Source: Escherichia coli
GTDB taxonomy: Bacteria; Pseudomonadota; Gammaproteobacteria; Enterobacterales; Enterobacteriaceae
Length of the DNA: 64,000 nt
Direction: 5' to 3' (one strand)
Assembly: GCF_003334405.1 (NCBI RefSeq)
Contig: NZ_QOWM01000008.1
In this document: in pieces, positions 27,499 to 27,709 of the stretch
How positions within the stretch are numbered: position 1 is the first letter of the stretch
How the letters are laid out: each line of letters starts with the position of its first letter
Position numbers and translations under genes: made by a program
The notes under the pieces: model-generated
The model's input: only the letters and a program-made list of their open reading frames with translations
Database searches by the model: none
What the model was told of the DNA's origin: nothing

Positions 27499-27542
27499 GA
27501 TTCTTCGCCTTTGGTTTGTTTTCCGCTCGTTATCAAAGCGTA

Positions 27543-27557
27543 AAATATAATGACCAC
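27543..27557. promoter_or_regulatory. Candidate PuuR operator motif in the puuA-puuD divergent promoter region
   Basis: AAAATATAATGACCA; a related ATATTGAACA motif recurs at 27637-27652; assignment to PuuR rests on my recollection of a similar 15 bp recognition sequence and is not verified. Confidence 0.35.
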
Positions 27558-27709
27558 CATTCGAATCTGTATGCAAACTAAATGTTTGTCAAATGTTAAA
27601 TTGAGTTTGCAAAAATGAAAACCCACTGCTAGATTGAAAAAATATTGAACATAAAGGTCATTTAAAGCGCAGTAATGGCGATAATTTAGTCCACTTTGTG
27701 AGATTGAGC

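Follow-up and report, generated by a model that had tools for sequence, protein, structure and literature searches.

The 211-bp spacer between the divergent genes puuA and puuD, together with the first codons of puuD, very probably constitutes a dual PuuR/ArcA control region with four PuuR operators (S1, S2, S4 and S3) that share the 20-nt near-palindrome nTGGnCAATATATTGnCCAn. All four sites are located within positions 27538-27729 of the window (the whole 64,000-nucleotide stretch of Escherichia coli DNA analysed), in the puuA-puuD control region near puuR. Regulation of this region by PuuR is already known, having been published and characterised in E. coli K-12. According to Nemoto et al. 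(2012), as cited in the available text of PMC9951944, PMC7901475 and PMC9397018, PuuR binds the puuA and puuD promoter regions, and putrescine relieves the repression; four PuuR-binding motifs in the puuA-puuD spacer are attributed to the same study in the available text of PMC9951944 and PMC7901475. The site sequences were not found printed in the literature searched, and the biosensor supplement holds no promoter sequences. Because no available paper prints the sequences, the four sites described here cannot be confirmed to be the published four.

Organisation of the puuA-puuD locus

The 601 bases around the feature occur in many E. coli chromosomes with 100% identity, and the annotation of these identical records gives the gene order puuA, puuD, then puuR, puuC, puuB and puuE. 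The gene for glutamate-putrescine ligase (puuA) occupies positions 26080-27498 on the minus strand, whereas those for gamma-glutamyl-GABA hydrolase (puuD, 27710-28474) and the repressor (puuR, 28501-29058) are found on the plus strand. These coordinates confirm a divergent spacer of 211 bp at 27499-27709, as the initial annotation had stated. The A+T content of the region, used as background composition, is 66%. Pfam analysis revealed that PuuR consists of an HTH_3/XRE DNA-binding domain (9.6e-15) and a Cupin_2 sensor domain (1e-18). For comparison with published data, a U00096.2 position equals the window position + 1,331,434.

A 34-bp length difference seen in the top BLAST matches does not lie in the spacer and corresponds to a frameshifting insertion within puuA. 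This insertion is carried by E. coli SW071611 (L082) and two sister wastewater isolates, in which puuA is annotated as a pseudogene; neither the 211-bp spacer nor puuD is affected.

A family of 15-nt repeats

A repeat search that used no prior model recovered a family of 15-nt direct repeats with three copies on the plus strand: AAAATATAATGACCA at 27542-27556, AAAAAATATTGAACA at 27637-27651, and AAAATATAATGAACA at 27714-27728, the last of which covers puuD codons 2-6. With up to two mismatches allowed, AAAATATAATGAACA has exactly three matches in the 64-kb window, one of them being the pattern itself, while 0.18 are expected. A three-member family arose in 6 out of 500 dinucleotide-preserving shuffles of 27499-27740 (local p ~0.012). 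On local statistics alone, the repeat is thus real and of modest significance; the cross-species support for the motif family is far stronger.

The initial annotation had reported recurring AT-rich motifs in the spacer and had read them as PuuR operators, with their number and position left open. The motifs ATATAATGACCA (27545-27556) and ATATTGAACA (27642-27651) are indeed present, and both of the examples that it gave are the first two 15-nt copies. For these two the operator reading stands, given their match to AAAATATAATGAACA, which we take to be the 15-bp PuuR consensus, their conservation in every puuR-linked locus examined, and the literature. It does not stand for TTTGTCAAATGTT (27585-27597), a separate element outside the 15-nt family, which belongs to a published ArcA box and whose complement contains a perfect TTGACA. 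As to number and position, four sites are now proposed, of which that at 27675-27694 had not been flagged and that at 27710-27729, including the third 15-nt copy, lies beyond the interval first considered. A motif search with the presumed consensus finds S3, S1 and S2 at zero, one and two mismatches, respectively, and does not match S4.

Conservation of the control region

Scanning with PuuR, one genome being taken per species, yielded 80 loci. In 59 of them, puuA and puuD are divergent and separated by 205-239 bp (210-215 bp in Enterobacteriaceae). The footprint alignment of these 59 loci, with 27 representatives below 93% identity, consists of conserved islands (S1, the ArcA block, the -35 element, the extended -10 with S2, S4, and S3) set in variable DNA, the mean majority-base frequency being 0.85-0.92 in the islands and 0.55-0.70 between them. 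The islands read GTTaAATATAATGtCCAC (S1), AATGTTTGTCAAATGTTAAAT (nearly invariant), GTTTGCAAA, CTGCTAGATTGAgAAAATATTGAACg (extended -10 and S2), tTGGcaATAATTTAGTCCA (S4), and ATGGgcAATATATTTgACA (S3). Despite the drift of the intervening DNA, the distances S1-S2, S2-S4 and S4-S3 are conserved in the 59 loci at 95, 41-42 and 34-35 bp, respectively.

In cross-scans over ~546 positions, a position weight matrix (PWM) built from the orthologues of a single site returned other sites as its top non-self matches, in the identical 20-nt register and in either orientation. When E. coli was left out of the training set, the four E. coli sites were the four best matches of the window (22.3, 20.4, 19.1 and 15.1 bits).

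The same four-site layout, with spacings of 96/41/36 bp, is found in 13 paralogous loci of Serratia, in which a second puuA gene (puuA2) is divergent from a second puuR gene (puuR2) and puuD is missing (L068:3606-4003, as well as L058, L059, L062, L064-L066, and L070-L075). These loci keep an ArcA-like block, too. Their S3-equivalent, ATGGGCAATATATTTTCCAA, opens an ORF of ~41 codons (MGNIFSKFGTT...), the stop codon of which overlaps the puuR2 ATG (cTATGAgc), and this arrangement suggests that a leader ORF translationally coupled to puuR2 replaces puuD. In the loci of Rahnella and Pantoea, where PuuR is ~77% identical, the best matches of the whole locus are also found in the spacer, e.g., ATGGGCAATATATTTTCCAC at 22 bits. 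Since orthologues are related sequences, conservation alone cannot name the binding protein; the motif co-occurs with puuR orthologues and keeps its position in the 59 orthologous, the 13 Serratia paralogous, and the Rahnella and Pantoea loci.

The four candidate PuuR sites

Site S1, GCGTAAAATATAATGACCAC, occupies positions 27538-27557 (core 27542-27556), ~40 nt upstream of the puuA ATG and over the predicted puuA start. It has one mismatch to the 15-mer, a mean conservation of 0.91 among the 27 representative orthologues, and a score of 19.1 bits with the PWM trained without E. coli, for which the null maximum of a 64-kb sequence is 14.4 ± 1.9 bits. The PWMs derived from other sites match it in exact register. 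Site S2, ATTGAAAAAATATTGAACAT, is found at 27633-27652 (core 27637-27651), corresponding to -9 to +11 of the puuD promoter, and covers the mapped start at 27642; it scores 20.4 bits with the same PWM and is conserved at 0.89.

Site S3, ATGGAAAATATAATGAACAA, lies at 27710-27729 (core 27714-27728; +69 to +88), where it overlaps the start codon of puuD and codons 2-7. It matches the 15-mer exactly and, at 22.3 bits, is the best match of the PWM in the window. At codons 3, 4 and 6 the third position does not vary, even in ATA, a rare Ile codon in enterobacteria, while the third positions of codons 8-12 are conserved at 0.37-0.63. Because these synonymous positions are invariant and the site is retained in the Serratia paralogous loci, where puuD is gone, the conservation of S3 goes beyond what coding alone explains.

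Site S4, ATGGCGATAATTTAGTCCAC, at 27675-27694 (+34 to +53, in the 5' UTR of puuD), is the weakest of the sites and the least secure. Although it is the fourth-best match in 64 kb, its 15.1 bits are at the level of the null maximum (14.4 ± 1.9), and it is not significant on its own. Its candidacy is backed by conservation (block TGGcaATAATTTAGTCCA, 0.85 in the orthologue alignment), by cross-scans, and by stronger equivalents elsewhere, namely 17.2 bits in Pantoea (L078) and 16.8-18.5 bits in some Serratia paralogues. The PWM of S4 orthologues returns S3, S1 and S2 as top non-self matches in exact register, and the S2 PWM picks S4, which is outside the top eight of both the S1 PWM and the S3 PWM.

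Some further matches were noted in the window. Within puuD, ATGGCGATAATTAATGCCGC at 27998-28017 resembles S4 and scores 10.3 bits, which is chance level, as ~7 matches of at least 10 bits are expected per 64 kb. The fifth-best match of the PuuR PWM, ACGTTAACAATAATGACCAG at 21162-21181, falls upstream of the puu cluster, in the region of the sap operon, and its 14.6 bits are at the null maximum. The PWM scan predicted no PuuR-type sites upstream of puuP, puuC or puuE (best score at most 2.6 bits). The gene puuP (24392-25831) has its own promoter, since a published transcription start at 25923 (minus strand; U00096.2 1357357), which gives a leader of 146 nt, is located between puuA and puuP. The best score upstream of puuP is 0.3 bits, and control of this gene by PuuR, if any, would proceed via read-through from the puuA promoter or via a very divergent site.

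The ArcA site

Rather than a PuuR site, the element TTTGTCAAATGTT represents the core of an ArcA box described in the literature, combined with the predicted -35 hexamer of puuA. According to the supplement of PMC3798270, an ArcA-P site composed of four direct repeats, ATGCAAACTAAATGTTTGTCAAATGTTAAATTGAGTTTGCAAA, extends over U00096.2 1359005-1359047, i.e., 27571-27613 of the window (plus strand), and the 18-bp ArcA box atgtttgtcaaatgttaa (27582-27599, plus strand, 14 bits) contains TTTGTCAAATGTT. ArcA ChIP-seq peaks at U00096.2 1359011-1359020, as well as 15.3-fold repression of puuA and 10.6-fold repression of puuDR by ArcA, were reported in the same study. In the sequence, TGTTT at 27584 and TGTTA at 27595 are direct repeats of the ArcA type with a centre-to-centre distance of 11 bp, and the block 27582-27600 is nearly invariant among the orthologues. 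Both -35 hexamers of the region, only 14 bp from each other, lie under the ArcA repeats.

The ArcA box is bracketed by a 12-nt inverted repeat, TGCAAACTAAAT at 27572-27583 and ATTGAGTTTGCA at 27600-27611, whose arms are 92% complementary. The -35 element of puuD falls on the right arm, and the left arm is conserved in only a part of the Enterobacteriaceae. This repeat may represent the ArcA repeats DR1 and DR4, or the site of a further dimeric regulator. In addition, an FNR site in the puuA-puuD spacer was reported by Partridge (2006), as cited in the available text of PMC9397018. The best spacer matches to TTGAT-N4-ATCAA (27523-27536 and 27579-27592) have three mismatches, a stringency at which the window contains hundreds of matches.

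The puuD promoter and a predicted puuA promoter

The puuD promoter extends over 27607-27642 on the plus strand, with a -35 element TTGCAA (27607-27612), a 17-nt spacer, an extended -10 element TGcTAGATT (27627-27635), and a start at A 27642. The start was mapped in a genome-wide study (PMC3415461) to U00096.2 1359076, which is window position 27642 and leaves a 5' UTR of 68 nt, and the placement of the ArcA site at -70 to -28 in PMC3798270 agrees with it. The hexamers were read from the sequence and are conserved at 0.92. An RpoS-holoenzyme SELEX peak is found at 1359040, i.e., at 27606.

For puuA, a minus-strand promoter at 27564-27592 is predicted purely from the sequence: a -35 element TTGACA (27592 to 27587), a 17-nt spacer and a -10 element CAGATT (27569 to 27564) would direct initiation near 27557. 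The predicted -35 is invariant in Enterobacteriaceae, and none of the aligned species has lost A2 or T6 of the predicted -10 (e.g., TAGATT, TAAATT, TACATT, TATGTT). No puuA start is recorded in the TSS data of PMC3415461 and the supplement of PMC3798270.

On the minus strand, the sequence around TGGGTTTTCATTTTTGCA was considered as a sigma-54 -24/-12 element and rejected upon inspection, as its GG and GC are 2 nt too far apart. A riboswitch or small RNA was likewise rejected: an Rfam search over 27300-27900 revealed nothing credible, a single CRISPR-repeat model (E=0.54) being well under its gathering score.

What the repeated motifs are

It is highly improbable that the AT-rich repeats, instead of being operators, serve several promoters as -10-like TATAAT boxes or UP elements. 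Such a reading could draw on the TATAAT present within S1 and S3, on the promoter density of divergent spacers, and on a sigma-70 consensus scan, which gives TTGTGA-16-TATAAT at 27696-27723. However, this single hit equals the shuffle expectation (0.8), the generic scan missed the real puuD promoter, and no start is recorded downstream of the TATAAT of either S3 or S1 in the TSS data of PMC3415461. Site S2 contains no TATAAT, and the mapped puuD start at 27642 uses TAGATT (27630-27635) rather than the repeats. Moreover, the GC-containing arms TGG, CCA and ACA, for which a promoter has no need, are conserved as well.

Another binder of AT-rich DNA (extra ArcA repeats, Fis, IHF, H-NS or Lrp) or chance similarity might be considered in a region with 66% A+T, in which the local shuffle p is merely ~0.012, the more so as ArcA sites can span several repeats (PMC3798270). 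This explanation is barely credible. Chance is excluded by the cross-species conservation and the fixed spacing, whereas an unrelated binder has to account for a motif that travels with puuR in every locus, including the puuA2-puuR2 loci and those in which PuuR is 77% identical. ArcA in particular is disfavoured, as the motif lacks the TGTTA repeat at 11-bp spacing and the ArcA site given in the literature does not extend beyond 27571-27613; the available text of PMC9951944 and PMC7901475 assigns binding in the spacer to PuuR. Recognition of the four sites by PuuR is the reading retained here.

Symmetry of the operator

The 20-nt register was picked by eye ahead of the PWM tests. In this register, the averaged matrix of the sites reads aTGGnaAAaATATTGtaCAn and, when symmetrised, nTGgncAATATATTgncCAn. 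Its dyad score is 10.96 versus 5.79 ± 1.17 for column shuffles, and none of 5000 shuffles reached it. The individual E. coli sites are weakly self-symmetric and imperfect. The comparison favours a view in which the sites have kept different half-sites of an imperfect palindrome, i.e., the right arm in S1, the left arm in S3, and both arms in S4. The 15-mer taken as the consensus is the central and right-hand part of the 20-nt near-palindrome, and a perfect-palindrome form of the operator would read TGGACAATATATTGTCCA. From these data, the prospects of a PuuR dimer on a palindromic operator appear about evenly balanced. The fuller proposal, in which the operator is an 18-20-bp imperfect palindrome (TGGnCAATAT/ATATTGnCCA) bound by a dimer and the four sites form a phased array engaged in a looped or higher-order complex over both promoters, is a tentative one, with chances a little short of even.

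A competing and rather doubtful interpretation is that PuuR recognises an asymmetric 15-bp element like AAAATATAATGAACA, arranged as same-strand direct repeats and bound possibly without a symmetric dimer, in which case the TGG...CCA arms and the 20-nt palindrome would be an alignment artefact and S4 would not be a site. It agrees with the orientation of the three clear E. coli copies, which are direct repeats on the plus strand, with the poor scores of single sites against their own reverse complements, and with the chance-level score of S4 alone. In addition, the curated PuuR site is described as not palindromic, with no evidence of a PuuR dimer, in a paper from 2025 (PMC12645834). Several observations are nevertheless difficult to reconcile with asymmetry. 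The PWMs of S1 and S4 orthologues score highest on the other sites when these are read in the opposite orientation, with the register exactly kept, the dyad score exceeds those of all of the column shuffles, and more distant loci contain a nearly perfect TGGGCAATATATTTTCCA (7 out of 9 symmetric pairs). By analogy, the related XRE-cupin regulators PauR, PsdR and ErfA, which act as dimers on palindromes (PMC7901475), would also argue for a symmetric site.

Proposed mechanism of regulation

Taken as a near-palindromic operator present in four copies, the PuuR sites would act on two back-to-back promoters, the mapped puuD promoter and the predicted puuA promoter, under two repressors, PuuR and ArcA. 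PuuR bound to S2 would block the -10 element and start of the puuD promoter, and PuuR bound to S1 would block the predicted start of the puuA promoter, so that RNA polymerase would be shut out at both; occlusion by S2 is proposed because of the mapped puuD start, and that by S1 because of the predicted promoter only. Sites S4 and S3, downstream of the puuD start, are probably auxiliary or roadblock sites and may stabilise a higher-order complex. Such a complex may form because the spacing is conserved and S1, S2 and S4 are in helical phase, 95 bp (S1-S2) and 42 bp (S2-S4) being ~9 and ~4 helical turns. This suggests cooperative or looped binding of PuuR. The exact 20-nt register, the binding of a dimer, the promoter of puuA, and the functions of S3 and S4 are inferred parts of this scheme.

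According to PMC9951944 and PMC7901475, PuuR is released upon binding of putrescine to the cupin domain; puuAP and puuDRCBE, puuR included, would then be induced. Under anaerobic conditions, ArcA-P on its four repeats at 27571-27613, across both -35 hexamers, would turn both promoters off. According to the available text of PMC9951944, the full-length puuD promoter is repressed 36-fold in a heterologous host and a truncated one 6.9-fold. These values are compatible with a contribution of more than one site.

Relation to known systems and implications

The system belongs to the same locus as the PuuR-operator system of E. coli K-12 (Nemoto et al. 2012, J Bacteriol 194:3437; puuO in biosensor work), with which it shares, as far as that system is described in the available sources, the repressor gene, the target spacer, four motifs, and repression relieved by putrescine. 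Nothing in it is different in kind; the operator is drawn here as a 20-nt near-palindrome instead of an asymmetric 15-mer, and the comparative analysis sets one site in codons 1-7 of puuD and one in the 5' UTR. The multi-repeat ArcA sites compiled by Park et al. (2013; PMC3798270) include the TTTGTCAAATGTT block as the ArcA box of puuD/puuA, with four direct repeats spaced at 11 bp, and AT-richness is the sole feature that this box has in common with the PuuR motif. The Pseudomonas XRE-cupin regulators PauR, PsdR and ErfA have the same HTH_3 and cupin architecture as PuuR and are local repressors of adjacent catabolic genes, which bind palindromic sites as dimers and are released by pathway metabolites; PauR is a described homologue of PuuR (PMC7901475). 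The consensus sequences differ among the XRE-cupin members, and the dimer and palindrome proposed here for PuuR are contradicted by a remark in PMC12645834.

The refinements are small and concern the near-palindromic shape of the operator, the conserved spacing and phasing, and a site embedded in coding sequence. A sharper site model would be useful for putrescine biosensors based on PuuR/puuO and for curation of the RegulonDB type. In this model, the PuuR sites are cleanly set apart from the -35 elements and the ArcA box, and the assignment of TTTGTCAAATGTT is corrected as well. Should the proposal of a phased array hold, full repression would use a fixed array of operators, with S3 in the first codons of puuD, and the layout of this array would be one that is conserved across Enterobacterales, even where a short leader ORF replaces puuD.
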